From: a virus | Taxonomy: Duplodnaviria; Caudoviricetes | DNA length: 34,864 nucleotides | IMG/VR virus record: IMGVR_UViG_3300020045_005593 | Span: 1 to 34,864 of that record | Reading direction: 5' to 3' (one strand) | Shown: positions 1-29,955 of the stretch, one piece after another | Layout of the letters: the number at the start of each line of letters is the position of its first letter | Position numbering within the stretch: position 1 is the first letter of the stretch | Position numbers and translations under genes: made by a program | The notes under the pieces: generated by a model | Told to the model about the DNA's origin: nothing | The model's input: the letters and a program-made list of their open reading frames with translations, nothing else | Databases searched by the model: none

Positions 1-68
1 GCAAATAAATTATATTGAGCGTTTCCAATAAAACCACACAATAGCAATAAAATTATATATTTTCTCAT
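1..68 (-). CDS. 5' end of a secreted/fibre-region protein, runs off the left edge
   Basis: ATG at 68 overlaps the TGA of the upstream gene (ATGA). Reads MRKYIILLLLCGFIGNA-QYNLFA, a Sec signal peptide followed by Gln. Confidence 0.75.
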   Translation of the reverse strand, partial: MRKYIILLLLCGFIGNAQYNLF

Positions 69-1729
69 AATGACCCTGCTGTTAAATATTCGTTTGAAAC
101 TCCTGTATTTACAATAGTATGACTTAATTTTTCAGCCATTGTCGTTCCTGTATTATTTATTAAAACAACCGACCCGCCTAAAGCATAAGTCAATGTTACG
201 CCTGTTTGAGTAGAAAAAGAACAATTAAAACCACTCATTAAACCGTTTGGTAAAGTTACAGTACATGATGCCGTTAATAGAATTATTGTTCCGTTATCTG
301 AATTAGCTAACGTTGTATTTGTTGATATTTTACGAACTGTTAATTTAGTCAAGGCCAGTGTTCCGCTATCGTTTGGAATAGAAATTGTTTGATTTGCTGT
401 TAATGTTTCGGTATCTAAAGTATTAGAATAAATTCCGTTATAAAATTTAATAGTTCCAGTATCTAATATCTCTAAATCTGAATCAGTTCTAATATTGTCA
501 CTAAATGTTTTATCCCCTAAAATAGTTTGATTAGTATTTAAATCAACTACATCAACAACATTTGCGGGCGTATAGCCCAAAGCCGCTATAATTGACGCAC
601 TTGAAACAGCGACACCTCCACTTGCGACACCTCCAAATTTTTGCGCTTCAATTATTTTAGAAGTAGTTGTATTTGTCAAATCCGTAGCGTTATTTCGTAA
701 AATAATATAAGCTCTTACTATTCCATTTGCAGCAATATTTGGTTCAACAACAAATGACCTCGTAACTATTGCGGCCTCTGCATCTGCTAAAGTAGCGTAT
801 GTTTGTTGTCCGTATTGTATTCTAGTTTGCCCTGTTTGAAACAATGTAACTGTTTGAATAGTAAAACGATTTGAAGGAACGCTAGTCAATACATTTGCTA
901 AATCATAAACTGATGGATTTAAAACCGTCAAATCTCCGCTTTCAGTACCATTTTGTGTTCTATATCTAAATGTTAAAGCTGTACCTGATGCAATTGATAA
1001 ATTATTAGGGTCTTTCCAATTATTAGCAAAATTTACACCTAATTTAAATATAATTCCCGCGCTTTTATTTAATGATAAATTTGCACCATTTTCAATATAT
1101 TTATTTCCTGATATATTTAATGCTCCAATTGCTTCCATTAAGTCGTGCAATTGATTAGTTCCTGCATTGGTAGGTGCTGAAATGTTATTGACTAAATTAA
1201 TTGTGGTTAAATTGCTGTGTATTACTGCCCCCAAAGCAATTAAATCGCGCCTTTGAATATTTGTAAATGGTGTAGCTTGCATAACTACTGAAGCACTCGA
1301 ATTTATTGCAACGTATGTAATATTAGAAGTAAGTAAATACGTTGGTGTAATTCCTGTAAATGCGGGAAAATTAATTATTTTACAAATAGGATTTTCAGGA
1401 TCGTCAAAATTAGATATAATCCCAATACCCGCCGTAATATTGAATTTTGTAGGATCTGCGTTTGTAGTTACCAAACCGTTTTTTATCAATCCTGTAGATA
1501 GGTAGCTTTTTAACTTTAACGAATCAATAACGGCTAATGAAATCGGTATGTTATTAACAGATGCTTTTCCATAAGTTCCGTCTGATCCTTGTGTTACTAA
1601 AGTATTTGGATTTGTAACTGTTTGAGTAGAATTATTTTTTATTCCGTAATCAAATTCCTGTTCTTGTCCAGTACTTGTTTGTCCATATCCTACAATGGAT
1701 ATTAATAAAAATAAAAGTATTTTTTTCAT
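65..1729 (-). CDS. Tail fibre-like protein with N-terminal signal peptide
   Basis: Probable start MKKILLFLLISIVGYG-Q at 1729. T/N/S/G-rich, with fibre-type motifs IIAALGYTP and NQTILGDKTF and a C-terminal TIILLTASCTVTLP domain. Lies downstream of the tail tip genes. Confidence 0.65.
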   Translation of the reverse strand: MKKILLFLLISIVGYGQTSTGQEQEFDYGIKNNSTQTVTNPNTLVTQGSDGTYGKASVNNIPISLAVIDSLKLKSYLSTGLIKNGLVTTNADPTKFNITAGIGIISNFDDPENPICKIINFPAFTGITPTYLLTSNITYVAINSSASVVMQATPFTNIQRRDLIALGAVIHSNLTTINLVNNISAPTNAGTNQLHDLMEAIGALNISGNKYIENGANLSLNKSAGIIFKLGVNFANNWKDPNNLSIASGTALTFRYRTQNGTESGDLTVLNPSVYDLANVLTSVPSNRFTIQTVTLFQTGQTRIQYGQQTYATLADAEAAIVTRSFVVEPNIAANGIVRAYIILRNNATDLTNTTTSKIIEAQKFGGVASGGVAVSSASIIAALGYTPANVVDVVDLNTNQTILGDKTFSDNIRTDSDLEILDTGTIKFYNGIYSNTLDTETLTANQTISIPNDSGTLALTKLTVRKISTNTTLANSDNGTIILLTASCTVTLPNGLMSGFNCSFSTQTGVTLTYALGGSVVLINNTGTTMAEKLSHTIVNTGVSNEYLTAGSL

Positions 1730-1744
1730 TGGTGTAATTTTTAA

Positions 1745-1752
1745 CAAATATA
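1745..1752 (-). promoter_or_regulatory. Bacteroidota sigma-A -7 element TATATTTG
   Basis: Exact TAnnTTTG about 16 nt upstream of ATG 1729, just after a terminator. Confidence 0.7.
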
Positions 1753-2918: not shown

Positions 2919-3046
2919 AATTTCTCTTCTTTTTTTAATTCTTCAATTGTTCTTTGTTTTGCGTAATTGCGTACTTCTTTGATTAGTTTGGCATCGTCCA
3001 AACACTGTACGCTTATTTGAATTTTGCCGTTTTTTGATTTTTTCAT
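2915..3046 (-). CDS. Small basic protein, possibly ribbon-helix-helix DNA-binding (43 aa)
   Basis: Not in the ORF track. MKKSKNGKIQISVQCLDDAKLIKEVRNYAKQRTIEELKKEEKL fills the gap exactly and ends in an ATGA overlap. Confidence 0.6.
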   Translation of the reverse strand: MKKSKNGKIQISVQCLDDAKLIKEVRNYAKQRTIEELKKEEKL

Positions 3047-4327: not shown

Positions 4328-4857
4328 AATTTTATAATTTTTAAAACCACACAATAAGGTTGCATATTTTTATTAGTTCCAGATACTCCAACTGTTTCTG
4401 TTCCAAACATATCACCAGCAACCGTGTCGCCAACATATGGGGTTTCGGGATATTTATTACCTCCGTCAGTTGAAGAATATTTTAAACCGTGACTATGTGC
4501 AACTACGACCGCATCCCTAGAACCTCCGTAAGCCCCTATGTTGTTTTGAACAGCACCGTAACCAATTGTAACAAGTCCGTCTAATTCAGTGGCTAATCTA
4601 AAACCTGTCAATAAATTTATTCCTAATCCGGCTTCGTCAATATTATTGTCTATATATTCCTGTGTAACAAATAGTTCCTTTATTTCGTGTTGTAATGCCG
4701 CAGAATGTATATTTACAAAATCAATAAGATTTTGAAAAGTTGCATTTTTAAGTGTTTGGTCTCCGATTGTTTCAAATGGAAATATATCGGTCAATCCAAT
4801 CGCGTCTGGAGACAATTGGTCAACTCTTACAGTCGTTATGTCATTTGGATCTATCAT
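4324..4857 (-). CDS. Minor tail protein with tail-collar-like C-terminus
   Basis: GAYGGSRDAVVVAHSHG...GVSGTNKNMQPYCVVLKIIK matches the HxH/NxQPY pattern of collar and short-fibre proteins. Confidence 0.7.
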   Translation of the reverse strand: MIDPNDITTVRVDQLSPDAIGLTDIFPFETIGDQTLKNATFQNLIDFVNIHSAALQHEIKELFVTQEYIDNNIDEAGLGINLLTGFRLATELDGLVTIGYGAVQNNIGAYGGSRDAVVVAHSHGLKYSSTDGGNKYPETPYVGDTVAGDMFGTETVGVSGTNKNMQPYCVVLKIIKL

Positions 4858-5366
4858 AGTTGTTTTGTTCTAATTATTTGTGTTGCAGTTGGGTCTGTAA
4901 CAATTAATTCATTTGGATTACCACTGTTTAATACATCAGTGCCTTTAGTTGTTGTTAATGGTATTCCAAAACCAATTAAAGAGCCGCTAAAAGATAAAAA
5001 TTCATCAACCGGAGTAGCTTCTGAAAGTTCGCTTATATAGCATTTACCGTAATCAATTATAGGAAAATCGCCTTCTATTTTCCATTCCAACAAAGCACGT
5101 GATCTTTTAAATTGTTTTAATTTATCATAAGAAACAACATTAAAATTACCGCCTGCAACACTTGTTACTACTTGCAACCCGCTAAATGAAATCGTATAGC
5201 TTTGCATATTTGGCCGTGATGTTGACCAACCACCGTTATCCCGCGTTGTTGTATCTATAAATTCGCTAGTTTCGCTAAATGGATTATCTTGCAAACAAGC
5301 AATAGGTAAATAATTACCTAATACTTTTATGAATAAAATTCTGCTTTCTCCTTTGTAAAAATCCAT
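4854..5366 (-). CDS. Second tail-tube-like protein (paralogue of the major tail protein)
   Basis: KGESRILFI..YLPIACLQDNPFSETSEFIDTTTR aligns with KGEKGIIYV..YKPVACLTSNSLNTTVSMITSNTK; both carry L.EWK and YG..YI..L. Confidence 0.75.
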   Translation of the reverse strand: MDFYKGESRILFIKVLGNYLPIACLQDNPFSETSEFIDTTTRDNGGWSTSRPNMQSYTISFSGLQVVTSVAGGNFNVVSYDKLKQFKRSRALLEWKIEGDFPIIDYGKCYISELSEATPVDEFLSFSGSLIGFGIPLTTTKGTDVLNSGNPNELIVTDPTATQIIRTKQL

Positions 5367-7204: not shown

Positions 7205-9003
7205 TATCTCCCTCCTATTCTTAAGTTTCTTTCAGTAGTGTTGTTCAATACCCCAATTAAAGACGTTCCGGCTATTTCAAATACAACTGAACCATTTGCG
7301 CCTCCACTCCATCCCGTTCCGTTTCCTGATGTTGTTGATGTGTTATTAGCTGTTGAGCCTGTTGCTGTTGATGTTTTACTACTACCTCCTTTTGCTTTGC
7401 TTCCAATCGCGCCCCCTGCTGCTTTTAATAAAACACCTACTGCTATTGCAGCGATACCCGCGCCAATAGCAATTGGCCCACCTGTTGCAATTGCTAAATC
7501 TAAATTACCTTTGGCTACTGCTAAAACACCATATTTAATAAGTAATCCACCCATATCGGAAAGAAACGCGCCTAAACTTTGAAGTAATGAATTTCCAATA
7601 GCAGAAAAAACATTTTGACCGCTTGCCAAGGCCTCGCCAATTGACGTTCCTAAATCACTAAATGTAGCTCCTAATGAATCAATCACTAATCCGTTTACAT
7701 CTTCACTAAAATTAAATAATAACGCTTGTGTTGCCAATAATTCACTAGACACAACCTCTCTAATTCCTGTAAAAGCCGTTTTTATTGGCTCAGTATTTAT
7801 TGGAGAAACAACTAATCCAATAGGTATCAATTGAGATTGTAATCCTGATACTTGCGGAGTATTAAAAGTTTGTGCTACTTTTTTACCCCCGCCAGTTTGT
7901 TGTTGCTCTAGTTTTAAACTTGATGCCGTTAATTGATTTATTACGTTTTGTCTTTGGTCAATTGCTTTTGTTCCTTTTAATATTTCAGATCTATATTCGC
8001 TTTCGGCAAATTTAGAATTTCTAATTAAACCGTTTAAATTTGTAACAGCTATAAACTTTTGGTTATCCGCATAAAGTTCATCCTTTGTTGAATTTCCAAC
8101 TAACAAAGCTAATTCTTTTTCAAGTTTTAAAGTTTTGTCTTTTTGTTGAAGTAGTTTAGCGTTTGCTGAATATATTTTCAATTGAATGTCAGCACTAGCT
8201 CCGGCTAATTTTTCAGCGGTTGCCCTTGCTACTAAAGCTTTCGTAAGCTCCATTACAACACCTGTTAAATTAGAAGTCATTATCTGTTCCTTAGATAAAT
8301 TTCCAAAGTAACCAGGATATTGCTTTTGTAGATTTTCAACTGCTATCAATCGATCTTTATCAGATAAAGCCTTATTTTGTGATGCAGAAACCAAAGCTTT
8401 TAATCCAAAAACTTCACCTGCTGTTGCTTTTACACCTTCTTCACTAGCTTTTTTAATTGCGCCTCCAAATTCATCAAATTTACCTGTAACTTTATCAATA
8501 ATATCGCCAACACTTAAGCCTGATTGAGCTAACAAAGTGAAACCTGTAGTAAGCAAAGAAACGCCTAATAAAATACCACCACTACCCATTATAGACGATG
8601 CCATAGCTTTTAAAGCTCCACCTGTTGATCCTGTACTATTTTTTAAGTGTCCAAAAGCCTCTACGGTTGCTGTAATATTATTCCCAATACCAATAATCCC
8701 GTAGGGCGCATCTTGCGCTATACGTGAAAACTGCATTAAGGCATTGCCGCCGTTTGCAGTTTGTTTTACAAATTGCCCCCCAACTTGTGCGCCAGTATCT
8801 TTAACGGCCGTTTTTAAACTATTTAATTGACTTTTAGCGTCTTTTATTTGAGCTGTAATTTCGTGCGTATCTAAGCCAAGTTTTATCTTTTCAAGTTTAG
8901 CTTTCGAAAGTTCTTTAACGTCAAATTCAACTTCCTTTATTTTCTTTTGGAAGTCTGTTATGTCAGCACCAATTTGTACCTCTAATTTATTGCCTGTTGC
9001 CAT
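7204..9003 (-). CDS. Tape measure protein
   Basis: 599 aa, Ala/Gly-rich and helical with hydrophobic stretches; starts LEVQIGAD; follows the chaperone pair. Confidence 0.85.
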   Translation of the reverse strand: MATGNKLEVQIGADITDFQKKIKEVEFDVKELSKAKLEKIKLGLDTHEITAQIKDAKSQLNSLKTAVKDTGAQVGGQFVKQTANGGNALMQFSRIAQDAPYGIIGIGNNITATVEAFGHLKNSTGSTGGALKAMASSIMGSGGILLGVSLLTTGFTLLAQSGLSVGDIIDKVTGKFDEFGGAIKKASEEGVKATAGEVFGLKALVSASQNKALSDKDRLIAVENLQKQYPGYFGNLSKEQIMTSNLTGVVMELTKALVARATAEKLAGASADIQLKIYSANAKLLQQKDKTLKLEKELALLVGNSTKDELYADNQKFIAVTNLNGLIRNSKFAESEYRSEILKGTKAIDQRQNVINQLTASSLKLEQQQTGGGKKVAQTFNTPQVSGLQSQLIPIGLVVSPINTEPIKTAFTGIREVVSSELLATQALLFNFSEDVNGLVIDSLGATFSDLGTSIGEALASGQNVFSAIGNSLLQSLGAFLSDMGGLLIKYGVLAVAKGNLDLAIATGGPIAIGAGIAAIAVGVLLKAAGGAIGSKAKGGSSKTSTATGSTANNTSTTSGNGTGWSGGANGSVVFEIAGTSLIGVLNNTTERNLRIGGR

Positions 9004-9316
9004 TTTTGAAACTCTTTTAGGAAACGTTCTTTGTGTTCTTCTGATACGCCTTCATTTGCTTTTTTATCTCCATTCAAAGGTAAGAATAATTCTTTACGCT
9101 TTACCATTTTTTTAGGGTCTTGATGTGGCGCAATATAACTTGTCCACATTAATTCTCTTAACATTTGCCATTTATATAAATCTTTCCTTTTATATGCAAA
9201 AAGCCTGATTTGAAATTCTGCCCACGTCATGTCGTAAACGAAATCCAAATCAGGACAATTAAGCTCTCCTAAAGCGAAAGAAATTACATCTTCGCTCCAG
9301 TTTATTTTGTCGTTAC
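8982..9316 (-). CDS. Tail assembly chaperone, -1 frame extension (gpT-like part)
   Basis: The -1 frame is open from the A9 run: SNDKINWSEDVISFALGELNCPDLDFVYDMTWAEF... Confidence 0.8.
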
Positions 9317-9646
9317 TTTTTTTTTAGTTTCCGGCTGTGTTGGTACATCTTTAATTAAAGAATTTACAAACGCAGTATTAAAACTTTGTAAAACTTCAAC
9401 AGTACTATCATCTATCCAATTTATAACGTCTTGTAATACAAAATCAGGGTCTTTTCCTTCACGTACGTATCCATAAGAACAAGAATGATACATCATTAAA
9501 GGCAGCCATTTAAAAGGATTTGCAACTCTTAAACGGTCAAAATCTGACATGTCCGTATTTGTTTCGTCTAATAGTCTACCTAAAAAACCTAAACCAAAAT
9601 AGAAATCTCTATATTTACCACCTATATGTAAATTTATTTTTTTCAT
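9302..9646 (-). CDS. Tail assembly chaperone (gpG-like)
   Basis: 114 aa between tail tube and tape measure, ending KKKVTTK over a slippery A9 run. Confidence 0.8.
   Translation of the reverse strand: MKKINLHIGGKYRDFYFGLGFLGRLLDETNTDMSDFDRLRVANPFKWLPLMMYHSCSYGYVREGKDPDFVLQDVINWIDDSTVEVLQSFNTAFVNSLIKDVPTQPETKKKVTTK
9317..9325 (-). other. Programmed -1 ribosomal frameshift site (A9)
   Basis: ACT AAA AAA AAA GTA; a -1 shift joins the next ORF without a stop. Confidence 0.8.
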
Positions 9647-9648
9647 AA

Positions 9649-10095
9649 TTATATTAATTCAGCTTTCCAATATCCAGAACCTAAATGAATGAATCTATAT
9701 GATATGTTTGCAGCTACTGAAACATTTGTACTTTGACTAGATACGCCATTCGGAGACAAAACCGATGTTCCCGCTTGGTTTCCTCTTACCGCAAAAGCAT
9801 TAGCGTTATTAGCGGCAAATACAAGTACTTCTTTTCCTATTATATCAGTAGTTGGCAGTACTACTTTGTCAGTAGCTCCGGTTGTAGTCACGGTGTTTAA
9901 ATCGTAACTTAAAATTTCGTATAAGGAAACGTCTGTAGCCTCAACACTTCCTGCTGTTTTTACTGGTGCTTGTTGATCTACATAATCAACAACGGCTTTT
10001 AAATTAGTTCCAACATCTGTTGGAGTTATTCCTGCGGGCGTAGTTTCGTTTGTTATTTGGCTATCAATTTGCGCCTTTAATGCTGTATTTGTCAT
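9649..10095 (-). CDS. Probable tail decoration / short fibre protein
   Basis: N-terminal helical LKAQIDSQITNETTPAGITPTDVG..L..VVD and C-terminal beta domain with VVLP motif; sits between tail tube and chaperone. Confidence 0.6.
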   Translation of the reverse strand: MTNTALKAQIDSQITNETTPAGITPTDVGTNLKAVVDYVDQQAPVKTAGSVEATDVSLYEILSYDLNTVTTTGATDKVVLPTTDIIGKEVLVFAANNANAFAVRGNQAGTSVLSPNGVSSQSTNVSVAANISYRFIHLGSGYWKAELI

Positions 10096-10110
10096 TTTAT
10101 TGATTTAAAG

Positions 10111-10152
10111 TTAAGCAAATTCACTGCTAAAAACATTATTGAAAACGCTAGT
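10111..10152 (-). other. In-frame extension after the UGA stop (TSVFNNVFSSEFA), readthrough candidate
   Basis: GCC TGA ACT AGC GTT TTC AAT AAT GTT TTT AGC AGT GAA TTT GCT TAA. Confidence 0.55.
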
Positions 10153-10596
10153 TCAGGCGTTCGGATCTACTAAAACAATAGCTCCATCTCCGTCAATGGT
10201 CGCGCTAAACGTAGATACTTCGTCACCACTTCCAAAAGTCGCATTTAAATCAGTAATATAGCCACTACCGTAGTATTTTACACTTGTTGCATCGTCAATA
10301 TTAGTGTCTAATTTCCACTCAACTAATGTTTTGGCTTGTTGAATTAAGAATAATGCGTCATGTGATTGTTTGGCTGTATCCCCCCCAACAGTCGTAGTGT
10401 CGATATATTCACCTTCGGCATCAATACTATAATCAAATGATCCCGGTGTTTTCTTTGTTACGCCCGGATAACATTTAGTATTTGATGTTATCATTGAAAC
10501 AGTTGTATTTAAACTGTTTGAAGTTAAACAAGCTACTGGCTTATAGGCAGCACCTGTATAAACGTAGATTATTCCTTTTTCGCCTTTAATGCTCAT
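10153..10596 (-). CDS. Major tail tube protein
   Basis: 147 aa with YYGSGYITDLNATFGSGDEVSTFSATIDGDG, typical of siphovirus tail tubes; canonical position. Confidence 0.88.
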   Translation of the reverse strand: MSIKGEKGIIYVYTGAAYKPVACLTSNSLNTTVSMITSNTKCYPGVTKKTPGSFDYSIDAEGEYIDTTTVGGDTAKQSHDALFLIQQAKTLVEWKLDTNIDDATSVKYYGSGYITDLNATFGSGDEVSTFSATIDGDGAIVLVDPNA

Positions 10597-16423: not shown

Positions 16424-16471
16424 TGTGTGTGTGTATTAATTTTCCCTACTCGTTAGCTTTTCGGTTTCCGC

Positions 16472-17848
16472 TTATTGATTATTAATTGCCATTTCAGTTA
16501 AGCTAGGGTCATCAATTCTTTTTAAATTAGAATTAATATAAATAATAGAAGTTTCCTCGCTTTCTATTGCTTCGTAATTTATAGCCTCTCTTATTTCGTC
16601 TGGAGTTAATGGAGCTTTAACCATCCAATCAATCATTTTTGCCGTATCCGTTTGCATTTCAGGCAATTCACTAATATCAAATTCAATTACGCTTTTTTCA
16701 TACCCTTTGAATTTTTGTATAAATTCAGTATTTAAATATGATGCCAGTAAATCTAAATCAGGCTTAATGTTATCAGTTATAGAACGTTTACGCGCTTCAA
16801 TTACTCCGTCAACTCCAAATCCCGTTCCACTTTTTTCCTCGTTTAATAAGTCAATTGGCCAATTAAGACAGTTACATAAAGTACGTTTATCATTGCTTAA
16901 ATAGTCAAACGGTTTTAATTCATCTGTTGTTAATGAAATACGCGTAAAACCTAATTTAGCAGATGCACCGGCAATATTAGACAATCTACTAGATGTATTG
17001 TCCATATCTAGCAACCGTTGCTTTAAAGAATCTCCCTGTTCTGATGTTAAAGGACTTTGTCCGTCTCCGGCATGAATAAACCCATAAACACCACTATTTT
17101 GCATTGTTTTAACGTTGTTATCGATTCCGCTATTAGAACTATTTATATTCCTAATAGCTGCCATTAATTCACTATATCCGTATAAATGAGATCCGTTTTG
17201 ATTGTAAAATGGATTAGCTCGTTTAATATGAATTATACTATCTACATTGAACTTAATAAACTGATTTCCTTGTTCTAGTATATAATAATCAATAGGATTT
17301 TCAACACTTAAAGAGCTTGCATTTGATTTTAAAACTATTTGTACCCAATGCGATGGAAGTATATATAATTGCATTGGAACGCCAGCGTTCATTCCGTCTA
17401 ATGGTGACATTTTATATAAATAAACATTTCCACAAACTTTTAGATATAATTTATACAAAAATAAAATATCGTTCCATGTTTGATTGGGATTAGGACGTAA
17501 TAAAGGCATTGGCTGTTCAATATCTTTGTGTGCCTCTTTATTTAATAAATCATATTGTTTTTTCTGTACAAATGTTTTATCAATTGGTAATCTTTTTAAC
17601 TTGTTATAACTATCATCGTCTTTAATTGGTTTAATTATGTAAGGAACTGCAGTTGTTTTACTTGCCATTTGATTAACAATAGAGTTTACGTCTGGATTTT
17701 CCCCATAACCTTTAACCAAAAGAGTTTCTAAAGTGCTGTTATATGTTGTAGTTATGCCGCCTACTTGTCGATATAGTGCCTCGTTAAAGTAATTCTTATT
17801 TGGATTTAAAAAAGCATCCAACGCTAAACGGAATCTATTTACTGCCAT
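16472..17848 (-). CDS. Portal protein, HK97 family
   Basis: LLRPNPNQT, GNVYLY, LYILPSHWV, IIHIK, LYGYS, LTPDEIRE. Confidence 0.93.
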   Translation of the reverse strand: MAVNRFRLALDAFLNPNKNYFNEALYRQVGGITTTYNSTLETLLVKGYGENPDVNSIVNQMASKTTAVPYIIKPIKDDDSYNKLKRLPIDKTFVQKKQYDLLNKEAHKDIEQPMPLLRPNPNQTWNDILFLYKLYLKVCGNVYLYKMSPLDGMNAGVPMQLYILPSHWVQIVLKSNASSLSVENPIDYYILEQGNQFIKFNVDSIIHIKRANPFYNQNGSHLYGYSELMAAIRNINSSNSGIDNNVKTMQNSGVYGFIHAGDGQSPLTSEQGDSLKQRLLDMDNTSSRLSNIAGASAKLGFTRISLTTDELKPFDYLSNDKRTLCNCLNWPIDLLNEEKSGTGFGVDGVIEARKRSITDNIKPDLDLLASYLNTEFIQKFKGYEKSVIEFDISELPEMQTDTAKMIDWMVKAPLTPDEIREAINYEAIESEETSIIYINSNLKRIDDPSLTEMAINNQ

Positions 17849-19613: not shown

Positions 19614-19685
19614 TGGAGAATAAAGGAATCGAACCTTTGACCTCTGCCACCTTAGGCAGCGCACCACCGACTGTGCTAATTCCCC
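19614..19685 (-). tRNA. tRNA-Ala-like RNA with non-canonical 6-nt anticodon loop
   Basis: GGGGAAT TA GCAC AGTCGGTG GTGC G CTGCC TAAGGT GGCAG AGGTC AAAGG TTCGATT CCTTT ATTCTCC A. All four stems pair; G3:U70 and A73 present; followed by CAA, not CCA. Confidence 0.8.
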
Positions 19686-29826: not shown

Positions 29827-29955
29827 ATGAAACTCACTCAAAAACAACTAGACAATTCAATGATTATAACCAGAGCAATTCCTAAATCTCAAATTGAAAA
29901 ATCAGGAAGGGAAAAAAGACGTGAAAAAAGAAAATTAAATAGAAAAAATAAATAA
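29827..29955 (+). CDS. Small Lys/Arg-rich protein (42 aa)
   Basis: MKLTQKQLDNSMIITRAIPKSQIEKSGREKRREKRKLNRKNK; first ORF after the plus-strand promoter. Confidence 0.55.
   Translation: MKLTQKQLDNSMIITRAIPKSQIEKSGREKRREKRKLNRKNK

Follow-up and report, generated by a model that had tools for sequence, protein, structure and literature searches.

A predicted docking tag behind a candidate leaky UGA stop in the tail tube gene of a Flavobacterium-type siphophage

The tail tube locus and its fibre-like partner gene

The window, i.e. the whole stretch of DNA analysed here (34,864 nt), is an entire virus record, about 89% complete, from a Flavobacterium-type phage, and its genes follow the siphophage order from terminase to tail fibre. 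The features described below lie on the minus strand around the gene of the major tail tube protein. The TGA of this gene, the tag behind it and the following gene are together referred to as the cassette.

10153..10596 (-): TGA-terminated gene of the 147-aa major tail tube protein (match to phrog_1407 major tail protein, E 9e-29)
10153..10155 (-): candidate readthrough site, a UGA stop that is likely leaky (constancy of TGA in relatives)
10114..10152 (-): hidden 13-codon F-x3-F-x3-F tail, TSVFNNVFSSEFA, a predicted docking tag (conserved open frame)
10111..10113 (-): TAA closing the extension (TAA in 53/53 in-frame cassettes)
9649..10095 (-): 148-aa gene with an N-domain and a tailspike/baseplate-type beta domain, a predicted short fibre or spike (fold matches)
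9970..10095 (-): 42-residue N-domain with two helices, predicted to bind the tag and to trimerise (conserved amid swapped C-terminal domains)
8982..9646 (-): presumed tail assembly chaperone pair (position, and A AAA AAG with the -1 frame open across it)

The tube gene is located between the tail terminator (phrog_176) and chaperone/tape-measure-like genes, and its product has no Pfam match. The initial annotation described an end at DPNA-UGA, followed by 13 codons of the same frame with three spaced Phe residues and a TAA, and these coordinates were confirmed. The closing TAA is followed by a 15-nt spacer and then by the ATG of the 148-aa open reading frame at 10095 (-). It was also correct that the tube UGA, unlike most UGA stops of the window, is not part of an ATGA overlap: among the 53 minus-strand open reading frames 15 end in TGA, and 13 of these 15 read ATGA, the two exceptions being the tube gene and a 75-aa open reading frame at 29889. 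The tag motif is found neither at the end of nor behind the stop of any of the other 52 listed minus-strand open reading frames of the window, and 61 of 200,000 shuffles of the 60 nt behind the tube stop produced F-x3-F-x3-F in an open frame that ends at a stop. A sequencing error at 10153-10155, a concern raised at the outset, was checked with contigs of two runs of one study (X1 and X2), which cover the stop site and whose eight differences all lie elsewhere. The tag behind the UGA is thus real as an observation.

The presumed chaperone pair contains A AAA AAG at about 9305-9320 (-), near the end of a 114-aa open reading frame, from which the -1 frame runs open into 8982..9248; this is likely the usual tail-chaperone frameshift. 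The window encodes a second tube-like gene at 4854-5366 (-) (phrog_1407, PF06199), downstream of tape-measure-like and hub-like genes, which ends in ATGA with a back-up TAG and carries no tag; a search for this gene in the fetched loci returned no matches. At 16443-16474 (-), where the portal gene has its 3' end, a DUF805b RNA motif scores above the Rfam gathering threshold, and the tail-fibre-like protein encoded at 65..1747 has a signal-peptide-like leader, as judged by eye.

The N-domain of the 148-aa protein has 187 representative homologues at E<=0.001 and belongs to no Pfam or PHROG family. Its model contains helices at residues 4-14 and 25-40 with pLDDT of about 55-65, which is low confidence. 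No solved relative was found by sequence, and a fold search gave generic helix matches only. An Atlas lead to the N-terminal domain of T4 gp9/gp10 (PF07880; score 0.84, 129 shared features) stayed under the bar, with no Pfam match. The predicted fold of residues 46-148 matches the tailspike Solidus gp83 (Z 12.1, rmsd 1.8, 86 residues aligned), TSP4 of CBA120 (Z 10.3, rmsd 2.6, 94 aligned), the KP1 baseplate (Z 10.1) and the Pa223 capsid spike (Z 7.8). Among 36 hand-picked longer N-domain homologues, 12 contain collagen repeats (three above the Pfam cut-off), and other modules include CBM_5_12 (4), BppL_N (4), fn3 (1) and lyase-C (1). Because of the collagen and the other C-terminal modules, the partner points to trimeric fibres. 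In P0127, P0147, P0209 and P0230 (L127, L154/L159) the N-domain is followed by a second insert 'NKSTNVTTD..KYPSVKAVKDYVD', a repeat common to such fibres. Signal-peptide-like leaders, again judged by eye, occur in L144 and L182 at about 2940-3001 and in P0207, P0220, P0222, P0225 and P0246.

Tags, tube genes and N-domain genes in related phages

Tube genes of relatives were collected in several scans, each comprising at most the best 80 matches, and distinct genes with a complete end were counted. The first 80 loci split cleanly into those with TGA, a tag and an extra gene, and those of the cassette-free type, where the tube gene ends in TAA and runs directly into the chaperone gene. In total, 58 of 194 distinct tube genes among the matches listed, from two families, hide an intact F-x3-F-x3-F behind the stop. 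In 53 of these 58, among the same matches, the tag is in frame behind TGA and closed by TAA, and in the other five it lies in the -1 frame behind G_GGA_AAC; no tube gene among the 194 listed carries the tag by sense codons. In all 58 tag-bearing cases among the matches listed the next gene starts with the same 42-residue N-domain.

The family of 147-aa tubes, to which the window gene belongs, comprises 133 genes among the matches listed. TGA, an in-frame tag and an N-domain gene are found in 46, while 86 (84 ending in TAA, two in TAG) have neither tag nor N-domain gene, and a single one, L367, has TGA without an N-domain gene. L367:2939-3100 is a decayed cassette, in which the UGA is kept, a TAA occupies tag codon 2, the 5' part of the partner is lost and most of that gene is deleted. 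Conservation of the UGA in relatives was borne out by the same TGA in 46 distinct related tube genes (among the matches listed) and in the GenBank record of phage 11b. A sense codon at the stop site, named in the initial annotation as evidence against readthrough, is present in none of the 194 tube genes among the matches listed.

The second family has tubes of ~300 aa, whose model best matches lambda gpV and T5 pb6, with low TM-scores and E of 1e-5 to 1e-4. Among the 61 genes listed for it, seven combine TGA with an in-frame tag, five carry a -1-frame tag, and 49 show neither arrangement. The five -1-frame tubes among these matches end in G_GGA_AAC-TAR, and GGGAAAC is absent from the 49 tag-free ~300-aa tubes listed. 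At the frameshift loci a distance of 7 nt separates the heptamer from a hairpin (z -2.6, -2.1 and -3.2 in the three that were folded), and one of its pairs shows a compensatory change among four aligned loci. The candidate -1 frameshift sites lie at the end of a 308-aa tube gene in L173:2897-2964, L174:2898-2965, L176, L201 and L253.

Tubes of the 147-aa family that bear the cassette share from 20% to 100% identity (median 67%), and at least 10-12 gains or losses of the cassette are required on the tube tree. This spread of identities and the repeated changes of label on the tree indicate that gain and loss affect the cassette as a unit. Moreover, near-identical cassette DNA is found behind both tube families, so that the TGA travels with the cassette; for this reason, and with many contigs sharing sample prefixes, the 53 TGA cases are not independent. 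In one tube relative (L063:3001-3702) a He_PIG Ig domain is fused by sense codons to the tube C-terminus in place of the cassette. A scan of genome contigs gave one locus only. Among cultured phages, Flavobacterium phage 11b, whose origin is described in PMC3111985, is the only one found to carry the cassette, with gp36 followed by TGA TSVFSDTFALTFE and then gp37, and it is absent from seven other cultured relatives checked (phi10:1, tant8-1, FpV9, 1/32, B40-8, lillamy9-1 and Harreka_1). A match to a 'structural protein' of lotta8-1 was dropped, as it lies inside a 635-aa protein with no tag upstream.

The comparison was repeated from the side of the partner, with 89 distinct N-domain genes in the loci, three of which are cut by contig ends, leaving 86 complete ones; the aromatic motif was defined with F/Y/H at the first position and F/Y at the two others, each spaced by three residues. 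The initial annotation had stated that F-x3-F-x3-F tails often precede genes of this kind, and an aromatic motif indeed stands directly upstream in 86/86 complete genes. Recoded tags account for 58 of the 86 (57 tube genes and L182), 53 of them behind TGA (45 and seven tubes of the two families plus L182) and five behind the frameshift site. The carrier family of L182 is classified as major head protein in PHROGs, whereas the B40-8 record names it 'major tail protein 2' and in the Atlas it is tail-like; a search of viral contigs for relatives of L182 returned only L182 itself. The remaining 28 tags are sense-coded, forming the ordinary C-termini of non-tube proteins and never of a tube. In a 234-aa family of such carriers (e.g. 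L133) the gene follows homologues of crassvirus AUX gp36 and tail hub A (THA), the THA match being weaker in L151 and L159 and not found in L150. Another sense carrier is a weakly Mu gp48-like protein beside Baseplate_J. Most of the 28 have no family, and by their position they would be low-copy proteins. The spacer from the tag to the next ATG ranges among relatives from a few to more than 100 nt. A cognate natural pair is seen in L096, with a 287-aa protein that provides the C-terminus and a 144-aa partner. No candidate plug for the 148-aa protein other than the hidden tag was found in the window.

Of 1,191 other stops, a single one, a TAA, is followed by the motif. This rarity, together with the retention of TGA and tag in independent contigs, in tubes of 20-100% identity and in GenBank phage 11b, leaves hardly any room for a sequencing error or a fresh nonsense mutation as the source of the TGA, or for a chance origin of the motif.

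Selection on the stop and the tag, and decoding of the UGA

The initial annotation asked whether the frame behind the stop is conserved as protein, and the 39 distinct tag DNAs among the cassettes answer in the affirmative. Phe is kept 39, 39 and 38 times at the three positions (with one Tyr), while the residues between them vary. In the Phe codons only TT is invariant, the spacer codons vary freely, the Ser of the tag is encoded by AGC or TCA, and frame 0 is free of stops in 39/39. These features argue against the possibility that the 39 nt are never translated and are kept either as a translation initiation region or RNA structure serving the following gene, or as a passive leftover from a donor gene that moves along with the fibre cassette. 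Such a role would be in line with the little synonymous change in several early codons (ACT, AGC, GTT) and with the movement of the cassette as a block. However, the tag and the following ATG are separated by anything from a few to more than 100 nt, no fold is shared, the same motif is also found behind a -1 slippery site with a hairpin, and the tag decays where the partner is lost (L367). An untranslated element is therefore very unlikely.

Two other routes to the tag were considered and rejected. An internal start would require a start codon, and ATG, GTG or TTG before the first Phe is found in 0/53 in-frame cassettes. Stop-hopping is not in line with the codons flanking the UGA, which are identical in 1/53 and synonymous in 4/53.

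The stop itself appears to be under selection. TGA is unchanged across 52 cassettes, whereas changes at 15 conserved two-fold sites numbered 80 in total, with 1-13 at each. TAA and TGG, each a single transition away from TGA, were never reached in these 52 cassettes. The zero change at TGA is strong and not extreme evidence, because a single change was counted at two of the 15 control sites. Among the stops of other genes in the same loci, TGA outside ATG overlaps is found in 12 of 690, as opposed to 53/53 in-frame cassettes.

The initial annotation regarded UGA followed by A as a leaky context. The +4 base is indeed A in the window, but across the 53 cassettes A accounts for 43 and G for 10, and the general leaky stop context named in the available part of a review is C+4 (PMC7026636). 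The case for leakiness therefore rests on the statistics of tandem stops and not on 'UGA-A'. A second in-frame stop is found behind 58 of 82 ATGA overlaps, compared with 44 of 364 ATGA starts without overlap; after clustering at 50% identity, back-up stops are present in 10/17 versus 4/47 protein clusters (p 8e-5). Since most UGA stops in overlaps have a second stop as back-up, UGA is probably leaky in the hosts.

No shared stimulatory RNA structure was found 3' of the UGA (z 0.24 in the window, and 0/7 UGA-type sequences below -1.2), and no SECIS-like hairpin was seen behind the UGA among the same seven sequences, nor an Rfam match of this kind. A tRNA-like gene is present in the window at 19614-19685 (-), with an Rfam score of 55.7 bits, a G3:U70 acceptor pair and a 6-nt anticodon loop, to which ARAGORN cannot assign an identity. 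The G3:U70 pair presumably marks it as Ala. The UCA anticodon is absent from its 6-nt loop. Any tRNA match is found in six of 50 related records, two of these matches being in cassette-bearing records without an ARAGORN call, and in the complete phage 11b there is none. A phage suppressor tRNA was thus found neither in the window nor in the 50 related records or phage 11b.

These observations bear on whether UGA is mostly read as sense, through an alternative code, a suppressor tRNA or selenocysteine, so that most or all tube subunits would be tagged. The rarity of TGA as a free-standing stop (12/690) and the odd tRNA in the window might point in this direction. However, TGA closes genes at ATGA junctions, and the long and structural open reading frames are intact under table 11. 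The window tRNA lacks UCA, only six of 50 related records have any tRNA match and phage 11b has none, and no conserved SECIS-like hairpin speaks for selenocysteine. Full decoding would moreover predict that a sense codon replaces the stop in some relatives, and this is seen in 0/194 tubes among the matches listed. A UGA that is mostly sense is accordingly highly improbable.

The locus thus combines the sequence marks of programmed readthrough, namely a conserved stop, a conserved open in-frame extension, protein-like evolution of this extension and no start of its own. From these marks, readthrough of the UGA is very likely. The interpretation given in the initial annotation is supported at the level of sequence, including by the -1 frameshift relatives, which were absent from it.

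Proposed mechanism and comparison with known systems

It is proposed that most ribosomes would stop at the UGA and yield the 147-aa tube subunit, while a few would read through and add a 14-residue extension. The UGA would be decoded by a near-cognate host tRNA, since neither a phage suppressor tRNA nor a conserved RNA structure was found; near-cognate tRNAs for UGA are those for Trp, Cys or Arg. The extension may be directed outward from the tube, as tube C-termini and Ig-type extensions are described to face outward (PMC8718954). The partner would be a trimer, with the three Phe residues bound by its N-domain, and docking of the tag to this domain is predicted with good confidence. In this way short swappable fibres would be hung on the tail via the tag, and their tips likely serve surface adhesion. 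The core proposal, that UGA readthrough adds the tag to few tube subunits and that the tag docks the fibre-like product of the next gene, is probable, and readthrough, docking and side decoration taken jointly still appear fairly probable.

The leak rate would set the fibre copy number. The ratio of tape-measure length to tube subunits is known from lambda and was applied to the 599-aa tape-measure-like protein. The resulting estimate of ~130 tube subunits, multiplied by a leak of a few per cent, would give about 1-7 short fibres per virion.

The tag might be read through and still not serve side fibres, for instance by acting in the first or last ring only, or by binding during assembly only. 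The sense carriers, which are of hub or baseplate type, make such a fixed position conceivable. On the other hand, the C-terminal modules of the partner (tailspike-type, collagen, CBM_5_12, BppL_N, fn3, lyase-C) are freely swapped, as is typical of exposed adhesins, and the cassette is dispensable, being absent from 86/133 and 49/61 tubes of the two families among the matches listed. A role of this kind is therefore unlikely, and decoration of the tail side by fibres remains the preferred reading.

Recoded tags are found on high-copy proteins and plain tags elsewhere, which suggests that recoding limits the copy number. A broader generalization, held somewhat more tentatively and yet favoured, is that Bacteroidota phages possess a portable three-Phe C-terminal plug and a 42-residue trimeric socket on swappable fibres, the plug being plain on hub and baseplate proteins and gated by recoding on tubes. 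A leaky UGA and a -1 frameshift would be interchangeable gates on the high-copy tubes, and the error rate of the ribosome would set the number of fibres per tail, which could change with the host or the growth state.

If correct, this would place UGA readthrough in a tail gene of a dsDNA phage, where known tail-tube extensions use frameshifts. It would also assign a role to a widespread unannotated N-domain and provide a rule by which the docking sites of fibres could be located in siphophages, myophages and crAss-like phages of Bacteroidota, and it suggests that standard annotation overlooks virion components behind stops. Natural controls are present in the form of cassette-free relatives, a decayed copy, the frameshift version and constitutive versions. 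The cultured phage 11b (gp36/gp37) makes the system directly testable and offers a route to measuring UGA leakiness in Flavobacteria.

The literature searched, which included few subscription papers, gave no account of the motif, of the N-domain or of a tail tube gene read through at UGA. Examples of programmed readthrough in bacteria and phages are few, and the table in the available part of a review lists Q-beta A1 and SacB of B. subtilis (PMC7026636), and the accessible text of another article describes frameshift extensions only (PMC5221750).

A close precedent on a tail tube is SPP1, in which one tube gene gives a major short form, gp17.1, and a minor C-terminally extended form, gp17.1*, in a ratio of 3:1; the extension is described as outward-facing and dispensable, with a proposed aid to surface contact (PMC8718954). 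A short major and an extended minor tube form from one gene are also proposed here. However, SPP1 uses a frameshift to add a whole FN3 domain, whereas in the window an in-frame UGA precedes a tag of just 13 residues, and the adhesin is encoded by a swappable gene of its own.

Frameshift extensions are also described for Tsh and Cps of the Listeria phages PSA, A118 and A500, for Lactobacillus phage A2 and for gp10 of T3/T7, with PSA tsh shifting at CCC_UGA (PMC5009743). As proposed here, recoding acts at the end of the gene of an abundant virion protein, by routes that differ from phage to phage. These systems add Ig-like or other domains in another frame, whereas the tag is found here in frame 0 (53) or -1 (5), among the matches listed, with the predicted role of recruiting another protein. 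The extension of the window, in frame 0 and 13-14 residues long, is thus unlike the frameshift-extended Ig/FN3 tail proteins, and a shifted frame is found only in the five ~300-aa relatives among the matches listed.

The A1 protein of phage Q-beta extends the coat protein by a large domain. This minor coat protein results from readthrough, at about 5%, of the UGA that ends a major virion gene (PMC7026636). The likeness lies in a UGA readthrough that yields a minor extended subunit, which is a prediction in the present case. Q-beta A1 belongs to the coat of an ssRNA phage, while the present case concerns the tail tube of a dsDNA siphophage and a short tag.

In crAss001 the tail hubs THA and THB dock the trimeric fibre gp22 by its N-terminus (PMC10172136). 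This short N-terminal docking of a fibre on hubs resembles the arrangement of the crAss-like loci found here, in which a sense-coded tag ends the gene after AUX gp36 and THA. Neither a Phe motif nor recoding is described in the available part of the crAss001 account (PMC10172136), and the tag-bearing protein and the N-domain gave no sequence match to the crAss001 chains, THB being tried with a five-sequence profile. While recoded virion proteins are already known, what is new here is a recoding that likely sets fibre copy number via a portable docking tag.
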